IMG/VR virus record: IMGVR_UViG_2740892439_000006
Location: 1-53,794 of that record
DNA length: 53,794 nt
Reading direction: 5' to 3' (one strand)
Origin: a virus
Lineage: Duplodnaviria; Heunggongvirae; Uroviricota; Caudoviricetes
Part shown: positions 20,731-30,071 of the stretch, one piece after another
Layout: each line of letters begins with the position of its first letter
Numbering within the stretch: position 1 is the stretch's first letter
Notes under the pieces: generated by a model
Databases searched by the model: none
What the model was told of the DNA's origin: nothing
The model's input: the letters and a program-made list of their open reading frames with translations, nothing else
Made by a program: the position numbers and the translations under genes

Positions 20731-20775
20731 ACCACACATAGCCTAGTAGTTTATGCTGGGCTTTCATTTTTTTGA
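20717..20775. terminator. bidirectional terminator between convergent genes
   Basis: stem agcataaac/gtttatgct flanked by A-run and T-run. Confidence 0.5.
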
Positions 20776-21492
20776 AAGATCAATTCCAGTATTATCAAAT
20801 AAACTGGAAATATCAGACACCAATTTATTAAAATGCTTGTCATCATTATAGAATGATGTGCTTTTTATAGCGACTATAAAATCACATAAATCTTGCGGAG
20901 ATTCAATGCTAACACCCTTATTTTTATATAGTTCAATAATACTGCCAACATCAGTATGCAATAGTTTTATCGCGCCACAAATTTCTCGCTGTTTCGTAGT
21001 TAGGTCATTAAGTTTATTTTCATTTTCATATAAGATTTGTTTTGAATATTTAGCATCATTGGTTGCTTGATTTAACTTTGTTTTCTTTCTTTGCAATTCT
21101 ATTCTTTTATCATAATCAGCAACTTCATCTAAATATCTTATTTCAGTGTATAATTTACTTGTTAGCTTAGATATCTTCAGTGTGAGAAAAGGAGCTAATA
21201 CAGATGCAAATACTCCATAAATAAATGGAATTACAACGTGATAAACCCACGGGGATACAATCCAATTATCAAAGAACGGGACATTACCACCAACAAAAAC
21301 AATAGATAATGTATATAGGATGTCGTCCTTTGACTTTAATATAATTAAAATATCCTTCCAGTTAATGATTAGAAAAGAAATGACAACATATGCAAAAACC
21401 TTGTTAAATATTTTATCTTTTATAATCTCAGAAAATGATTTTAGTTCTGTTTCATTTATAGACGGATTATCTTTAACTTTTTCTGACATCAT
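20764..21492 (-). CDS. membrane protein with cytoplasmic coiled coil (Abi-like candidate)
   Basis: 242 aa, very AT-rich codon usage, hydrophobic N-terminal half. Confidence 0.45.
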   Translation of the reverse strand: MMSEKVKDNPSINETELKSFSEIIKDKIFNKVFAYVVISFLIINWKDILIILKSKDDILYTLSIVFVGGNVPFFDNWIVSPWVYHVVIPFIYGVFASVLAPFLTLKISKLTSKLYTEIRYLDEVADYDKRIELQRKKTKLNQATNDAKYSKQILYENENKLNDLTTKQREICGAIKLLHTDVGSIIELYKNKGVSIESPQDLCDFIVAIKSTSFYNDDKHFNKLVSDISSLFDNTGIDLSKK

Positions 21493-21513
21493 AGCTTATC
21501 CTGATTACTTTTA

Positions 21514-21714
21514 TTATGGATAGTTAAAAGATTCAACAGGTGATGGTGGCTGAATTGGGTAATGTTTCTTCTCGTACTCCTCAATGAGAAGACTCATAAC
21601 CTCAAAGAAATCACCTTCCGGAGTATTCATTTCCGGTTCGTTATCGAACATCGGTTCGACAGCACGCAGTGCGGCCTCATAATCTTGTTCTGTACGGATA
21701 GGTTTAATGTTCAT
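21514..21714 (-). CDS. HigA-like N-terminal domain fragment (no HTH)
   Basis: 66 aa; TEQDYEAALRAVEPMF...EPEMNTPEGD resembles N-domain of two-domain HigA antitoxins. Confidence 0.4.
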   Translation of the reverse strand: MNIKPIRTEQDYEAALRAVEPMFDNEPEMNTPEGDFFEVMSLLIEEYEKKHYPIQPPSPVESFNYP

Positions 21715-21726
21715 TAATTACAAAGG

Positions 21727-21758
21727 AAAGCCCACTTGCTAAGTGGGCTTTTTGTATG
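21727..21758. terminator. terminator-like hairpin
   Basis: stem agcccactt/aagtgggct followed by ttttt. Confidence 0.35.
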
Positions 21759-21770
21759 TGTTTTACTATA

Positions 21771-22109
21771 TCAGGCTGCTTTTTTATTCAGGTTCCGCTG
21801 AGAAATAAATTTTTCAGCAGTATTGATACGACTTAACTCTTCCTGAACGCGCATATCATTTTCGACTTCCCACAGGTCTACTGCGGTCTGAAGATTAATC
21901 CAAAAATCTACAGAAGTATCGAATGCTTTTGCCAGGCGATATGCCATATCCATCGTTAGCTTACGATTATTATTAACAAGAGCACTTACGGTGTTACGAT
22001 GAACATGAAGTATTTCTGCTAACTCGTTGATCTTCAGCTCTAACGGCTCCAGGTATTCGTACAGCAGGATATCACCTACGGTCGTCGGTTTTCTGGTTGC
22101 CTGTTTCAT
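21771..22109 (-). CDS. higA: HigA-family antitoxin (XRE HTH)
   Basis: VGDILLYEYLEPLELKINELAEILHVHRNTVSALVNNNRKLTMDMAYRLAKAFDTSVDFWINLQ matches HigA family pattern. Confidence 0.7.
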   Translation of the reverse strand: MKQATRKPTTVGDILLYEYLEPLELKINELAEILHVHRNTVSALVNNNRKLTMDMAYRLAKAFDTSVDFWINLQTAVDLWEVENDMRVQEELSRINTAEKFISQRNLNKKAA

Positions 22110-22179
22110 TTTTTGCCCTTACTAGCGTGCGTATTAAGTGGACTCTGGTCAGAACCCGGTCCGTAACCGGGTATCTGTT

Positions 22180-22482
22180 TTAGTATTTGTGAGGGTCGAG
22201 ATACAAGTCCTCGGCCTTTCCGTTAACCCACTTAAAAATTAACCTATATTGCTTATTCACCCTTACTGATGAATAGCCATTTAGCTTCCCTGACAGTTCC
22301 TCATACCGATTACCTGGTGGTGATCTTAAATCCTTACAGGTAGTTGCGGCATTGATAATGTCCAACTTCCGTGACAATGTCATATGAATATCAGGAGGTA
22401 TCTTTCTATGTGGTGTTGAAAATTCAAAAAAATCATCAAGCCACGCATCCCTGAAATCCTTTATGTTAATTTTTTTGGTCAT
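22180..22482 (-). CDS. higB: HigB-family toxin (RelE/ParE superfamily)
   Basis: LRSPPGNRYEELSG...YSSVRVNKQYRLIFKW matches HigB pattern; upstream of higA. Confidence 0.7.
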   Translation of the reverse strand: MTKKINIKDFRDAWLDDFFEFSTPHRKIPPDIHMTLSRKLDIINAATTCKDLRSPPGNRYEELSGKLNGYSSVRVNKQYRLIFKWVNGKAEDLYLDPHKY

Positions 22483-22632
22483 TAGTCATTTGATCCTCCG
22501 TGATGATTACCGAATGCCATAACTATAGCGCACCGTTGCACTGTGCGCAAGTGCATTTTATGAATTCCCCCTCCTTCATCCAAAATCACAATCTCCAGAA
22601 AATCTTCCTTTCGATACCTGACAGATCGACCT

Positions 22633-23436
22633 TTGAGGATGCTTATGGGCCGTTTTGACGAATGGTTTGCTGACGATGCAAACCTGGCAAGTAAGGAGTC
22701 AGAACATGACAGCACGCAGAGAGAAACGCCAGCGCCGATTGAAGCGAATGCAGGAGGCGCGCCGGAACATGGCAATACAGGTTCGGATTCATTCAGCATT
22801 CTGGAAGAGCAACCCGCCGCCAAAGCTGATAGCCATGATAATTTTGCTGATAGCAACGGTGGCCTTACTCCGGATGCTGGCGAATCAGATATAGCCATAC
22901 TTCCATCTTCCCTGGCTGGCAGAGAACCGACTCCACAGTTAAAAGCACGCTATAACGGGCATAAAGCCTTTAACGACCAAATCCGCGCAGACTGGATGCT
23001 GATTATTGAATCCAGCCCAGACGCGTTTCAGGCTCTCTTATATCGACCAGATGTTGGCACATATGGGGTAGTCAGCGACGAAACAGGAGAAGAGTCATTC
23101 ACTGAACTGGATAACAACCAACGCGAACTGACTTACCAGGAACCTGAAATCGTTTATGTGCTGGATAACCCTGACGGGCGTGACTCTTTCCATGCGATTG
23201 ACGCAGACGGTGAGCAGGATGGCTTAACCGATGATGTTCTGATTCTGCGTATTGCAGCAAATAACGTCCCCGTCGGCTCAATTCTTGAATGGAATGAAGA
23301 GATGGTAAACGGCGTAGCGCGCCGCTGGTGGTACGTGCACCGTATTTTTAGCTACGGCACACAGCATGTTGGTTCGCTTTACTACTGCATACCTGCCAGG
23401 AATTTTGATACGACTCAAAACGGAGTGATCGAATGA
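22633..23436 (+). CDS. hypothetical acidic protein (start uncertain)
   Basis: 267 aa track ORF; 3-prime end coupled to next gene (ATGA); N-terminal part overlaps an SD-preceded small ORF in another frame. Confidence 0.35.
   Translation: MRMLMGRFDEWFADDANLASKESEHDSTQRETPAPIEANAGGAPEHGNTGSDSFSILEEQPAAKADSHDNFADSNGGLTPDAGESDIAILPSSLAGREPTPQLKARYNGHKAFNDQIRADWMLIIESSPDAFQALLYRPDVGTYGVVSDETGEESFTELDNNQRELTYQEPEIVYVLDNPDGRDSFHAIDADGEQDGLTDDVLILRIAANNVPVGSILEWNEEMVNGVARRWWYVHRIFSYGTQHVGSLYYCIPARNFDTTQNGVIE
22706..22894 (+). CDS. small basic protein with C-terminal transmembrane helix
   Basis: Strong RBS taaggag 7 nt upstream of ATG; 62 aa, R/K-rich N-terminus then hydrophobic stretch. Confidence 0.35.
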   Translation: MTARREKRQRRLKRMQEARRNMAIQVRIHSAFWKSNPPPKLIAMIILLIATVALLRMLANQI

Positions 23437-24200
23437 CTTCAAATAAAACCCTCCTGGCGCGAACAGGTGAATGGCAAACCTCACGCACAGGAAAATTCCA
23501 GACCACGGGCTTTGAAAACGTGGATAACGCGTTTGCGACGCTAATCAGCAACATTTTTTCTGATATCTTACTGGTGGCCCCCGCGCCGGAAGAAAAACGC
23601 TTTGCGTCATTCCTGAATCGTCCACCAGCAGAGCGTGTCTATGTGGCCCGTTTCGACAATGCGATCGAGTTTCTTAAAGCAGTTCGTCGCGCAAATGCCG
23701 GGCAAGGGAGAAAACCTGAAAACCAGAACATTAACCGGGATGCTCTCCCCCTGGTCAATATCTCACGCACTATGGATATCAATTATATCAACGATGATCA
23801 GCAGATTGACCGCAAAAAAGTAGCCAGTTTTTGCGAACCGGATACCGGAATGCCTTTAGCAGAACTGGAATACACCCAGGCCATTCTGACGTATGACGTT
23901 ACGTTAATGGCAACTGATAAAGCGACCATGAGTCTGATGTGTAATTCGCTGGGCGCACGCCTTCGCCTGATGACAGGTACACAATTTGAAGCAACCACTC
24001 ACCTTGTTCGTGTCCCGGTCCCGCTGATTTGCTCGATACAGGATTCCAAAGAAGTCGGCTTTACGGATGTTTCAGCACCAATTGGAGAAGAGCGTATTTA
24101 TGCCACACAAGCGCCGATAAGTGTGATTGCAGACGTGATCACAGCATGGGAGTTGGACGCAAAACGTATTATTACCGAAACCTCGATATCTATGGGGTGA
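23433..24200 (+). CDS. putative tail/baseplate structural protein
   Basis: 255 aa; translationally coupled series leading to spike-like gene. Confidence 0.4.
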   Translation: MTSNKTLLARTGEWQTSRTGKFQTTGFENVDNAFATLISNIFSDILLVAPAPEEKRFASFLNRPPAERVYVARFDNAIEFLKAVRRANAGQGRKPENQNINRDALPLVNISRTMDINYINDDQQIDRKKVASFCEPDTGMPLAELEYTQAILTYDVTLMATDKATMSLMCNSLGARLRLMTGTQFEATTHLVRVPVPLICSIQDSKEVGFTDVSAPIGEERIYATQAPISVIADVITAWELDAKRIITETSISMG

Positions 24201-28409: not shown

Positions 28410-30071
28410 TTAACCTAACTTCGCCCAGGTATCACGCAGCCCAACGGTGCGGTTAAATACCGGTTTTTCCGCCGTGGAATGGCGGCTGTCGAGGCAGAAA
28501 TAACCTTCACGCTCAAACTGGAATGCTTTACCCGCTACCGCGTCTTTCAGCGACGGTTCAGCAAAACCCTGTTTGATCACCAGCGATTCCGGGTTAATCA
28601 CCGACAGGAAATCATCCGCAGCACCTGGGTTCGGCACGCTGAACAGACGATCGTACAGGCGGATTTCAACCGGCAGCGCATGTGCCGCGCTCACCCAGTG
28701 AATAACGCCTTTCACTTTACGACCATCTGCCGGATCTTTGCTTAAGGTGTCGGCGTCATAAGTACAGAAGATGGTGGTGATATTGCCTTCGGCATCTTTC
28801 TCCACGCGTTCAGCCTTAATGACGTAAGCATTACGCAGACGCACTTCTTTACCCAGCACCAGACGTTTGTACTGCTTGTTAGCTTCTTCGCGGAAATCGG
28901 CGCGGTCGATCCAAATCTCACCGCTAAACGGCACCTGACGGCTACCCATTTCCGGTTTGTTTGGATGGTTCGGCATGGTGACCATTTCGCCTTCGCCCTG
29001 GTAGTTTTCGATAACCAGTTTCACCGGATCGATAACCGCCATTGCGCGCGGGGCATTTTCGTTGAGATCTTCACGGATGCAGGATTCCAGCGACGCCATT
29101 TCAATGGTGTTGTCCTGCTTGGTCACGCCGATGCGTTTGCAGAACTCACGAATAGAAGCCGCAGTGTAACCACGACGACGCAGACCGGAAATGGTCGGCA
29201 TACGCGGGTCATCCCAGCCTTCAACGTGCTTGTCGGTCACCAGCAGGTTCAGCTTACGCTTGGACATCACAGTGTATTCCAGATTCAGGCGCGAGAATTC
29301 GTACTGGCGCGGGTGAACAGGAATGGTGATGTTGTCCAGTACCCAGTCATACAGACGACGGTTGTCCTGGAACTCAAGCGTACACAGAGAGTGCGTAATA
29401 CCTTCCAGCGCATCGCTGATGCAGTGGGTAAAGTCGTACATCGGGTAGATGCACCACTTGTTACCAGTCTGGTGGTGTTCAGCAAATTTAATGCGGTACA
29501 GCACCGGATCGCGCATTACGATAAATGGCGACGCCATGTCGATTTTCGCACGCAGGCAGGCTTTACCTTCTTCAAAACCACCGGCACGCATTTTTTCGAA
29601 CAGCGCCAGGTTCTCTTCAACGCTGCGGTCGCGGTACGGGCTGTTTTTACCCGGCTGCGTCAGGGTGCCACGATATTCGCGGATCTGTTCCGGCGTCAGT
29701 TCATCAACGTACGCCAGGCCTTTATTGATCAGTTCAACAGCATAGGCATGGAGTTTGTCAAAATAATCGGAGGAGTAACGGATGTTGCCAGACCAGTGAA
29801 AACCTAACCATTCAACGTCGTTTTTAATCGACTCGACGTACTCGATATCTTCTTTTACCGGGTTAGTGTCGTCGAAACGCAGGTTGCACTGGCCTTTATA
29901 GTCCTGGGCGATCCCGAAGTTCAGGCAGATAGATTTCGCATGACCAATATGCAGATAGCCATTCGGTTCCGGCGGGAAACGGGTATGTACTGTGGTGTGC
30001 TTACCACTGGCCAGATCTTCATCGATGATCTGACGAATAAAGTTAGTCGGGCGGGCTTCTGCCTCACTCAT
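28410..30071 (-). CDS. glnS: glutaminyl-tRNA synthetase
   Basis: 553 aa; N-terminus [24 protein letters not shown] and HIGH-type motif region match E. coli GlnS as recalled; extreme C-terminus reads ...DTWAKLG. Confidence 0.95.

Follow-up and report, generated by a model that had tools for sequence, protein, structure and literature searches.

A probable small membrane-protein gene overprinted in the +1 frame of tail gene 7 in D6-type phage-plasmids

A 62-codon reading frame lies out of phase within the 5′ part of tail gene 7 in the window (the whole 53,794-nt stretch of viral DNA analysed here), and comparison with its relatives suggests that it is probably a genuine gene, translated independently and overprinted in +1 phase on gp7's acidic N-terminal linker. 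Both frames are maintained, the +1 frame keeping a strong Shine-Dalgarno (SD) sequence and ATG of its own. The pattern of substitutions indicates that the +1 frame is under purifying selection at the protein level, strongest on an Arg/Lys-rich N-terminal helix. The features referred to below are as follows.

22483-22644, no strand: intergenic region separating gene 7 from the divergently oriented higB (minus strand), from comparison of the D6 and P1 annotations
22635-22639, plus strand: SD of gene 7 itself, GAGGA, 5 nt before ATG 22645; -6.0 kcal/mol; invariant in the D6 clade
22645-23436, plus strand: gene 7, homolog of P1 gene 7, tail protein of 263 aa; annotated in D6 as "similar to P1 gene 7"
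22692-22698, plus strand: SD of the embedded ORF, TAAGGAG, separated by the 7-nt spacer tcagaac from ATG 22706
22706-22894, plus strand: embedded ORF, 62 codons and TAG; predicted small tail-anchored membrane protein
22706-22768, plus strand: codons 1-21, Arg/Lys-rich N-terminal helix MTARREKRQRRLKRMQEARRN; predicted cytoplasmic
22745-22747, plus strand: codon 14, CGA (Arg); TGA in lab phage D6, followed directly by ATG codon 15
22814-22822, plus strand: codons 37-39, Pro-Pro-Pro hinge between two helices; break at 36-38 in the AF2 model
22826-22879, plus strand: codons 41-58, predicted hydrophobic transmembrane helix LIAMIILLIATVALLRML

Phage-plasmid D6 shares 99.4% identity with the window at the gene 7 locus; of 5426 complete E. 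coli genomes, 83 carry a D6-type element. The start annotated in D6 corresponds to window ATG 22645, giving a product of 263 aa that matches PHROG 1906 (tail protein, E=4e-116). A first-pass annotation had described the small ORF as out of frame within a 267-aa ORF; the longer figure comes from a mechanical call at TTG 22633, and the out-of-frame position holds (22706-22645 = 61, hence +1). Similarity to P1 gp7 is confined to residues 99-255 in tblastn and the first 98 residues are not alignable. Residues 13-98 form an acidic, hydrophobic-poor and poorly conserved linker (16 D/E, 4 K/R and 11 hydrophobic residues of 86), and the whole overlap lies inside it.

Such a poorly aligning N-terminus could be taken to mean that gene 7 starts after 22894, or that ribosomes shift into the +1 frame and make a fusion of the gp7 N-terminus to a membrane segment, and two database proteins (P0001 and P0002) do join the gp7 N-terminus to the +1 frame. 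Their junctions, however, fall at different points, as expected from indel or assembly errors, and a frameshift product would not need the conserved SD and ATG that the +1 ORF possesses. A late start is opposed by the N-terminal motif MGRFDEW, which is common to P1 (MAGFFDDMF) and every other clade and is preceded in the D6 clade by an invariant SD. Moreover, the gene-7 frame is open across the overlap in 58/58 distinct sequences, where every indel has a length divisible by three, and contains no ATG between the stop of the small ORF and the conserved domain. A late start or frameshift is thus scarcely credible. Since the overlap is read in the gene-7 frame as well, these are genuinely overlapping genes; of the two arrangements that the first-pass annotation had offered, a later start of the long ORF or a true overlap, the selection on the +1 frame and the conserved upstream start of gene 7 favour the latter.

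Reading from ATG 22706-22708 to TAG 22892-22894 gives the 62-aa translation MTARREKRQRRLKRMQEARRNMAIQVRIHSAFWKSNPPPKLIAMIILLIATVALLRMLANQI. The near-consensus SD reported 7 nt before this ATG was found by direct reading; its predicted duplex with the 16S 3′ end (-8.7 kcal/mol) ranks within the top 1.9% among all 964 ATGs on the plus strand of the window; gene 7 and the tail genes around it have weaker SDs (-5.8 to -6.8 kcal/mol for the latter). Upstream starts for the small ORF (TTG 22655 or ATG 22676) were rejected, as relatives carry stop codons between either of them and ATG 22706. The protein contains 14 K/R against 2 D/E overall and 10 against 2 in residues 1-21, while the hydrophobic helix at about 41-58 reaches a Kyte-Doolittle 17-mer mean of 2.66, in agreement with the basic N-terminus and single hydrophobic helix first described. 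AF2 models helices at 3-35 and 39-61, the latter with pLDDT >90, separated by a break adjoining the Pro-Pro-Pro motif. Translation would begin within the gene-7 mRNA, directed by this strong SD, and the product would insert as a tail-anchored inner-membrane protein, with its cationic helix (net +8 over residues 1-21) on the cytoplasmic face, followed by the Pro-Pro-Pro hinge, one membrane helix and about four residues beyond.

The 62-aa protein matches nothing in Pfam or PHROGs. No homolog outside the gene-7 locus was found among 5.8e9 clustered proteins (word-indexed search) and 1.84e9 representatives (full HMMER search), which returned only the two frameshift fusions of the gene-7 locus and three repeat-rich long proteins. 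Among phages, tblastn with the 62-aa protein matched D6 only, over residues 18-62, the match being limited to this part by the nonsense codon of D6. Host gene 7 occurs also in clades without a selected +1 ORF, so the +1 ORF is taxonomically restricted compared with gene 7, in line with a de novo origin.

An open +1 frame is in itself poor evidence for a gene. The frame might be a compositional by-product of an acidic, hydrophobic-poor linker, with no protein made or selected: a +1 stop requires a T as the second base of a gene-7 codon, runs of GAN give many Lys and Arg codons when shifted by one, and the SD-like AAGGAG is no more than a Lys and a Glu codon. Under random synonymous recoding of gene 7 the openness of the +1 frame is expected (P 0.1-0.37), and ORF length was discarded as evidence since recoding leaves the frame open just as often. 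The gp7 homologs of Citrobacter, Erwinia and Serratia, and of a related 17-sequence clade with 52-56% gp7 identity, likewise carry open +1 stretches, 47-83 codons long, that show no sign of selection. The hydrophobic helix is another matter, as it needs particular synonymous codons: 0/5000 recodings reach it in the window, L010, L011 and L046 (P<0.0002), and in L047 it has P=0.006.

Conservation of the embedded ORF extends well beyond its open frame. It is intact in 33/33 good-quality loci of the D6 clade, and two distant members, L046 (68% gp7 identity) and L047 (57%), retain the SD, ATG-ACA-GC, the basic helix, the hydrophobic C-terminal helix and the stop position, L046 also keeping a W-K-x-x-P-P-P motif. 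The ATG and SD persist where the gene-7 residues differ, with a purine-rich SD (TAAGGAG, AAAGGGA, GGAGGAA or GAGGAG) 7-9 nt before the start in relatives, a point against the by-product explanation. In 6/7 comparisons with the window, identity in the +1 frame equals or exceeds that in the gene-7 frame over the same bases.

The phase of substitutions is more decisive. It was followed in a D6-clade data set containing about eight truly divergent sequences, phylogenetically related to one another, with loci L006, L009 and L013 left out as frameshift-ridden assemblies. Downstream gene 7 has variable columns at 11, 6 and 110 of its first, second and third codon positions (163 each), whereas over +1 codons 1-21 the counts are 11, 5 and 1 (21 each). 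The loss of third-position variation (P=2e-8) and gain of first-position variation (P=9e-7) place the changes on gene-7 codon position 1, which is the third position of the +1 frame. Of the 12 variable +1 codons in this segment, 7 keep the +1 amino acid, while the gene-7 amino acid is kept in 0/12; an unselected +1-frame control gives 1/114 invariant (P=7e-8). At codons 8, 14 and 19, each in a separate lineage, Arg is retained through a change from CGN to AGR. An OLGenie-like analysis of codons 1-21 gives dNN/dNS of 0.16 for the +1 frame against dNN/dSN of 1.56 for gene 7, and 0/2000 bootstrap replicates had dNN>=dNS.

The signal is uneven along the ORF. Codons 43-62 have 5/18 variable codons invariant for the +1 amino acid against 1/114 in the control (P=1.5e-4), but the middle codons 22-42 show no preference for the +1 frame (0/17 invariant, against 4/19 for gene 7), and real signal of selection is limited to the N-terminal segment and the hydrophobic one. 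Over the whole ORF dNN/dNS is 0.41, and 0/2000 bootstrap replicates had dNN>=dNS, but this ratio was judged weak, as a control region with few differences also gives 0.41, and sub-regions and codon-phase counts were relied on instead. This equality with the control is a point for the by-product explanation, as is the nonsense codon of lab phage D6, but the switch of variation to +1 third positions, the 7/12 synonymous codons against 1/114 and the codon-dependent helix leave it improbable. Nor does the phase test fire on acidic linkers in general: the 52-56% identity clade, with an open +1 frame, shows no signal (third-position variability 25/41 vs 99/167, P=1), and its possible GTG-started +1 ORF was not accepted as a gene for the same lack of selection.

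Lowered synonymous variability alone, as seen in D6-clade codons 1-21 and in the P1 clade below, would be expected from any embedded element, and the overlap does lie near the 5′ end of the transcript. A non-coding mRNA or DNA element, such as a structure tuning gene 7, an internal promoter or a protein-binding site, could therefore be the cause of the constraint. It would not, however, be expected to make variation three-periodic in the +1 phase or to preserve +1 amino acids, including Arg through the two-step CGN-to-AGR change, and relatives retain the start and stop as well as the hydrophobic helix. Neither a promoter nor a terminator turned up within the overlap in a consensus scan, and we regard a non-coding element as very improbable. 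An antisense 138-aa ORF (22482-22898) was also considered as a source of the pattern; the third codon positions of this ORF and of gene 7 coincide base for base, so it cannot explain the substitutions.

Transcription would be late, assumed as for the P1 26-25-7-24-6-5 operon. A toxin-antitoxin insertion splits gene 7 from genes 26-25, so the intergenic region 22483-22644 must hold the promoter of a 7-24-6-5 transcript. Upstream of gene 7, a sigma-70 consensus scan of the plus strand of this region found no promoter, and comparison by eye with the P1 late promoter LP26 revealed no matching late-promoter motif. A conserved intergenic block, TTCGATACCTGATAAATCGACCTTTGAGGA, reads CTGACAGATCG in the window. 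A type I toxin, a small hydrophobic protein whose mRNA is silenced by antisense RNA transcribed at the same locus, was also considered. Over 22100-23500 a consensus scan, which is weak evidence, gave no promoter-like site inside the ORF on either strand, and the nearest minus-strand site in this weak scan lies about 110 nt downstream of the ORF, at 23031-23002.

The TGA at codon 14 of lab phage D6 bears on what the product might do. An exact-pattern scan of IMG/VR gave 0 matches to this variant. As D6 is viable, the full-length protein is dispensable for plaque formation; reinitiation at the TGA-ATG junction could still give D6 the 48-aa membrane part.

A comparable arrangement is present in P1 itself. 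P1 gene 7 holds an unannotated +1 ORF of 59 aa starting MLKSK, and a +1 ORF in gene 7 is seen in P1, P7, JK004 and Pantoea P1-like elements. In this clade 18/64 third positions of gene 7 are variable where the +1 ORF overlaps, compared with 123/138 downstream of it (P=5e-18) and 27/34 upstream, and 12/35 codons are invariant for the +1 amino acid against 2/125 in the control (P=1.4e-7). The P1-clade ORF resembles the D6-type ORF in its host gene, frame and rough place in the gene-7 alignment, in its dual-coding signature, in the order of a basic stretch and then a hydrophobic helix, and in an SD made from Glu codons (GAGGAAG). It differs in having two or three hydrophobic segments and in extending into the conserved part of gp7, and the P1 ORF lacks the long Arg-rich helix of the D6 type. 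BLASTP between the P1 and D6-type +1 proteins gives a marginal E=0.005, and the register of the alignment disagrees with positional homology, so a common origin is at most tentative.

Annotations examined (the 535-feature entry of P1, and the GenBank, RefSeq and PGAP annotations of D6) contain no feature inside gene 7, and the literature searched gave neither a report of an ORF inside P1 gene 7, though one may exist, nor ribosome-profiling or proteomic data for D6- or P1-type phages. Bacterial genetics has relied heavily on P1 for seventy years, yet this interior ORF is absent from the records examined. Gene 7 was classed as "essential" in CRISPRi work (PMC10695390), and if the overlap is real, knock-down or mutagenesis of gene 7 strikes two genes together. 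The clades would also offer a natural series for gene birth by overprinting, with the +1 frame of the linker unselected in some and selected in others, and another small membrane protein would join the phage effectors overlooked by gene callers. A more general lesson is that openness of the +1 frame in an acidic linker is uninformative, and that the phase of substitution decides.

What the protein does is the most speculative part of our reading. By analogy, it may be a non-essential accessory of the lytic cycle that acts at the membrane; instead of forming a structural part of the tail, it might modulate DNA entry or events at the envelope or in lysis. A broader proposal, which we consider rather unlikely, is that in P1-like phages, P1 included, the gene overprinted on the gene-7 linker encodes a late membrane effector of a new kind, while the related clades whose +1 frame is open without being selected represent a proto-gene stage. 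Within that proposal, the cationic peptide could possibly pair electrostatically with the acidic gp7 linker translated from the same mRNA and tether the baseplate or tail assembly to the inner membrane; alternatively, it could be a lysis-timing or DNA-entry (exclusion) factor unrelated to the holin, spanin and Sim systems.

The holin and spanin classes fit the embedded protein poorly. Holins and antiholins have one to four membrane helices and a charged cytoplasmic C-terminal domain and are usually encoded beside the endolysin gene; here the charged domain is N-terminal, about four residues follow the helix and the gene lies in a tail operon. An Rz1-like o-spanin was rejected as well, as the 62-aa sequence has no cysteine and the host is tail gene 7, not an i-spanin gene. 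P1 already has holins, an endolysin and spanins, the last being ppfA and mlp, located elsewhere in the genome (PMC9025707). Sequence features and the presence of such functions in P1 both argue against a spanin, holin or lipoprotein identity.

A small membrane protein encoded among tail genes would nevertheless have company. HK97 gp15 is a small inner-membrane superinfection-exclusion protein encoded in such a position, by a separate gene with its own promoter that is expressed from the prophage. The embedded ORF, in contrast, is overprinted, a consensus scan found no lysogenic promoter for it, and the two proteins share no sequence similarity.

Closer in architecture is MS2 L, a single-gene lysis protein of ssRNA phages. 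Both proteins are small (75 aa for L, 62 aa here), have a basic soluble N-terminal domain followed by a C-terminal membrane helix, and are encoded out of frame over another gene. A conserved LS motif after the hydrophobic domain is a hallmark of MS2 L-like proteins, and the Leu-Ser dipeptide is absent from the whole 62-aa sequence. L can do without its N-terminal domain, its activity lying in the membrane part (PMC10688784), and lab phage D6, which loses only codons 1-14, offers a parallel. The embedded protein differs from L in lacking sequence similarity to it, in overlapping a tail gene and in belonging to a 90-kb dsDNA myovirus; with holins, an endolysin and spanins in its relative P1, a single-gene lysis function is not needed.

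Precedents for the genetic arrangement are phiX174 E (in gene D) and lambda Rz1 (in Rz), +1-frame genes that lie wholly within another gene and have an internal start of their own. E is a small membrane protein (PMC10688784), but its membrane helix is N-terminal whereas that of the embedded protein is C-terminal. Rz1 is a lipoprotein with a lipobox cysteine, a residue that the embedded protein lacks, and both E and Rz1 sit in lysis or morphogenesis contexts whereas the embedded ORF sits in a tail-stability gene. What E, Rz1 and the embedded ORF have in common is a small product, predicted in the present case, that is targeted to the envelope and encoded in the +1 frame of the host gene it overlaps.

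The window is a P1-like phage-plasmid of the D6 type. Between 22400 and 23500 it is 99.4% identical to Escherichia phage D6, and the signals picked out there by the first-pass annotation are all present: TAAGGAG, a 7-nt spacer and ATG 22706, opening a frame that is +1 relative to gene 7 and encodes the 62-aa protein MTARREKRQRRLKRMQEARRNMAIQVRIHSAFWKSNPPPKLIAMIILLIATVALLRMLANQI. The SD-preceded small ORF is confirmed as described. The longer ORF had been given as 267 aa; this holds as a mechanical call from TTG 22633, but the start annotated in D6 is ATG 22645, yielding 263 aa.

22692-22698, plus strand: Shine-Dalgarno (SD) TAAGGAG (sequence read)
22706-22894, plus strand: embedded ORF, 62 aa, stop TAG 22892-22894 (sequence read)
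22645-23436, plus strand: gene 7, start ATG 22645, tail protein of 263 aa, homolog of P1 gene 7 (PHROG 1906, E=4e-116; D6 annotation)

The pairing of the embedded SD with the 16S 3' end (-8.7 kcal/mol) ranks in the top 1.9% of the window's 964 plus-strand ATGs, compared with -6.0 kcal/mol for gene 7 and -5.8 to -6.8 kcal/mol for genes 26, 25, 24, 6 and 5. Single-sequence AlphaFold predicts a helix at residues 3-35, a break at 36-38 adjoining PPP (residues 37-39), and a second helix at 39-61 with pLDDT above 90. Residues 1-21 carry a net charge of +8.

The entire small ORF occupies codons 21-83 of gp7, the gene 7 product, inside a poorly conserved N-terminal stretch (residues 13-98) that is acidic and hydrophobic-poor (16 D/E, 4 K/R, 11/86 hydrophobic); the window gp7 aligns with P1 gp7 over residues 99-255 only. 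Could such a linker produce the frame by composition alone, with no gene needed? A +1 stop requires T at host codon position 2, which leaves a hydrophobic-poor linker open in +1, and GAN (Asp/Glu) codons give a Lys/Arg-rich +1 reading. When gene-7 synonymous codons were resampled 5000 times with the codon usage of neighbouring tail genes, +1 lengths at least as great as observed had P=0.10-0.37 in five divergent relatives. Open +1 runs of 47-83 codons also occur in Citrobacter, Erwinia and Serratia gp7 homologs and in a 17-sequence group at 52-56% gp7 identity (the 52-56% clade). Openness and basic character are therefore no evidence of a gene. Composition does not, however, account for the phase of substitutions, the conservation of embedded codons, the hydrophobic helix, or retention of the SD and ATG in deep relatives.

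Gene-7 DNA was drawn from plasmids, species-representative genomes and IMG/VR, and the phase test used seven codon-aligned D6-clade sequences (76-100% identical), the divergent ones being few and related. Across embedded codons 1-21, variable columns at gene-7 positions 1/2/3 number 11/5/1 of 21 each, against 11/6/110 of 163 each in gene-7 codons 101-263; variation disappears from gene-7 third positions (Fisher P=2e-8) and increases at first positions, which are the third positions of the embedded frame (P=9e-7). Twelve of these 21 codons vary in nucleotides, and the +1 amino acid is retained in 7/12, the gene-7 amino acid in 0/12; in the rest of gene 7, an unselected +1 control, the figure is 1/114 (P=7e-8). 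Arginine is kept through CGN-to-AGR changes at embedded codons 8, 14 and 19, in a separate lineage each time, and an invariant MTARREKRQRRLKRM is spelled with differing codons where gp7 shifts from ETPAPIEAN to EETTTVEAN. OLGenie-like estimates for codons 1-21 give dNN/dNS of 0.16 in the embedded frame and dNN/dSN of 1.56 in gene 7, and 0/2000 bootstrap replicates had dNN>=dNS.

The hydrophobic helix (Kyte-Doolittle 17-mer mean 2.56-2.85) depends on T-ending gene-7 codons and was reproduced in 0/5000 recodings of the window and of relatives L010, L011 and L046, with P=0.006 for L047. Of the variable codons among embedded codons 43-62, 5/18 are invariant in the +1 product (control 1/114, P=1.5e-4). 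Codons 22-42, which overlap the conserved SFSILEE motif of gp7, have no +1 preference (0/17 invariant in the embedded frame, 4/19 in gene 7), and the whole-ORF dNN/dNS of 0.41 is equalled by a control region with few differences. The embedded ORF is uninterrupted in 33/33 good-quality D6-clade loci. As a negative control, the equivalent +1 frame of the 52-56% clade has ordinary third-position variability (25/41 vs 99/167, P=1), so an acidic linker is not in itself enough to trigger the test. An antisense 138-aa ORF (22482-22898, minus strand), spanning the overlap and the intergenic region, was rejected as the source of the pattern, as its third positions coincide with those of gene 7; it is most likely spurious. 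A fragment of it is annotated in one low-quality plasmid record.

Gene 7 of P1, of Cronobacter phage JK004 and of three further P1-type elements also contains a +1 ORF, with two or three hydrophobic segments, whose place in the alignment roughly matches that in D6-type elements.

L003 (P1 NC_005856, in gene 7), 2397-2576: +1 ORF, 59 aa from MLKSK, MLKSKPMVLTLVILLILWRTITFPIWITACLVILVCATVIKVMQFLITLCGWTGSKQSS; SD GAGGAAG, from Glu codons
L004 (JK004), 2298-2576: +1 open frame, extending upstream into a basic stretch

In this clade gene-7 third positions vary at 18/64 codons within the +1 ORF vs 123/138 downstream (P=5e-18) and 27/34 upstream (P=1.6e-6), and 12/35 codons are invariant in the +1 product vs 2/125 in the control (P=1.4e-7). 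The 535-feature P1 record has no annotation at this ORF. The P1-type and D6-type proteins resemble each other only marginally, in a register at odds with positional homology.

Among deeper relatives, L046 (68% gp7 identity) encodes the +1 protein MTAPRQKRQRRQKK...TWKRPPPPWVLLLMIMVISLVVM behind SD GGAGGAA, and L047 (57%) encodes MTARRQMRQRRLKRE...AVLIALGMLMTATGATFLLRMM behind GAGGAG; the stop position is shared by both ORFs. Among the first 15 codons, 11 differ between the window and L047, and 8 of those 11 changes are synonymous in the +1 frame. Over the same bases, identity to the window in the embedded frame is at least that in the gene-7 frame in 6/7 comparisons (90/85/58/70/72/42% vs 86/79/46/48/47/25%), L046 being the exception (34% vs 38%). 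In the 52-56% clade (L049-L066, L076; IMG/VR), a hydrophobic C-terminal +1 segment, PLAVLMTLTAAAVRIMTR, lies at the equivalent position (recoding P=0.003), with a conserved GTG behind GAGG. Gene-7 synonymous variation is not suppressed there, and this frame may represent a proto-gene or else a copy that has decayed.

Laboratory phage D6 itself (L001/L002) carries CGA to TGA at embedded codon 14 (window 22745-22747), a variant with no exact match in IMG/VR. The full-length embedded protein is therefore dispensable for plaque formation. The TGA directly precedes ATG codon 15, where reinitiation could yield a 48-aa membrane part, and the change may represent either a laboratory loss or tolerated truncation to that part.

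A later start for the long ORF is unsupported, because the N-terminal motif MGRFDEW (P1: MAGFFDDMF) is common to all clades, the gene-7 frame is free of stops through the overlap in 58/58 distinct sequences, whose indels are all multiples of three, the acidic linker is also present in clades without a selected +1 ORF, and no gene-7-frame ATG lies between 22894 and the conserved domain. The gene-7 SD ahead of MGRFDEW is likewise invariant in the D6 clade. The other proposal, genuinely overlapping genes, is supported by sequence comparison: both frames are kept, with a +1 selection signal and gene 7 read through the overlap.

P1 has genes 26-25-7-24-6-5 in an uninterrupted row downstream of late promoter LP26, whereas the window and D6 carry an oppositely oriented block between genes 25 and 7.

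20764-22482, minus strand: block inserted between genes 25 and 7 (order compared with P1)
22180-22482, minus strand: HigB toxin (Pfam HigB-like, E=4e-35)
21771-22109, minus strand: HTH antitoxin, member of the block
within 20764-22482, minus strand: orf73 and a 66-aa ORF, members of the block
within 20764-22482, minus strand: 242-aa ORF with no assigned function, listed as a member of the block

Other D6-clade plasmids have a "stationary phase growth adaptation protein" gene here instead, which marks the spot as a hot spot for accessory-gene exchange. The block leaves gene 7 preceded by a divergent intergenic region (22483-22644), where a consensus scan found no plus-strand sigma-70 promoter; by analogy with the P1 tail operon, the gene-7 transcript is assumed to be late. 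Between higB and gene 7, a perfect 6-bp inverted repeat followed by TTTTAT (22537-22555, TGCACT gtgcgca AGTGCA) was flagged by the scan as terminator-like and could equally be a HigA operator. Just 5' of gene 7, a block at 22620-22630 is kept across the D6 clade, reading CTGATAAATCG in most relatives and CTGACAGATCG in the window and L014; should TGATAAAT form part of the gene-7 promoter, operon expression may differ with the window variant. Further along lies a full-length glutaminyl-tRNA synthetase (553 aa, 28410-30071, minus strand; Pfam tRNA-synt_1c, E=6e-130), also annotated in D6.

Searches of 5.8e9 clustered proteins and of 1.84e9 representatives returned no homologs of the 62-aa protein except two frameshift fusions of the same locus. 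These (P0001 and P0002, from Logan assemblies) switch from the gp7 N-terminus into the +1 frame at differing points, most likely arose from indel errors or misassembly, and are the sole form of the hidden protein in protein databases. Lack of homologs, together with open unselected +1 frames in relatives, is consistent with a gene that arose de novo by overprinting a tolerant, poorly conserved linker. Judged on substitution patterns, the embedded frame is probably a selected protein-coding gene; neither it nor the comparable P1 ORF appears to be annotated, and both appear to be orphans.

Ribosomes would initiate internally at the strong SD on gene-7 mRNA. By the positive-inside rule, the product would be tail-anchored in the inner membrane, with the cationic helix cytoplasmic and about four residues outside. 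That helix is under the strongest selection, so its binding partner is probably acidic, whether phospholipid head groups, nucleic acid or gp7's own acidic linker. P1 possesses holins, endolysin and spanins (PMC9025707). Our best guess, offered with low confidence, is that the protein is a non-essential accessory factor acting at the membrane during the lytic cycle, with an effect on lysis timing, envelope events or DNA entry. The kind is already known, an overprinted small phage membrane protein; phiX174 E and lambda Rz1 are the textbook examples of +1 genes contained entirely within another gene. A lipoprotein with a lipobox was rejected for want of a cysteine, a holin since its charged domain would have to lie at the opposite end, and membership of the MS2 L family since the protein has no Leu-Ser dipeptide and does not resemble L proteins in sequence. 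In architecture it comes closest to MS2 L, in which a soluble basic N-domain is dispensable, activity resides in the C-terminal membrane helix, and the gene is encoded in overlap (PMC10688784).
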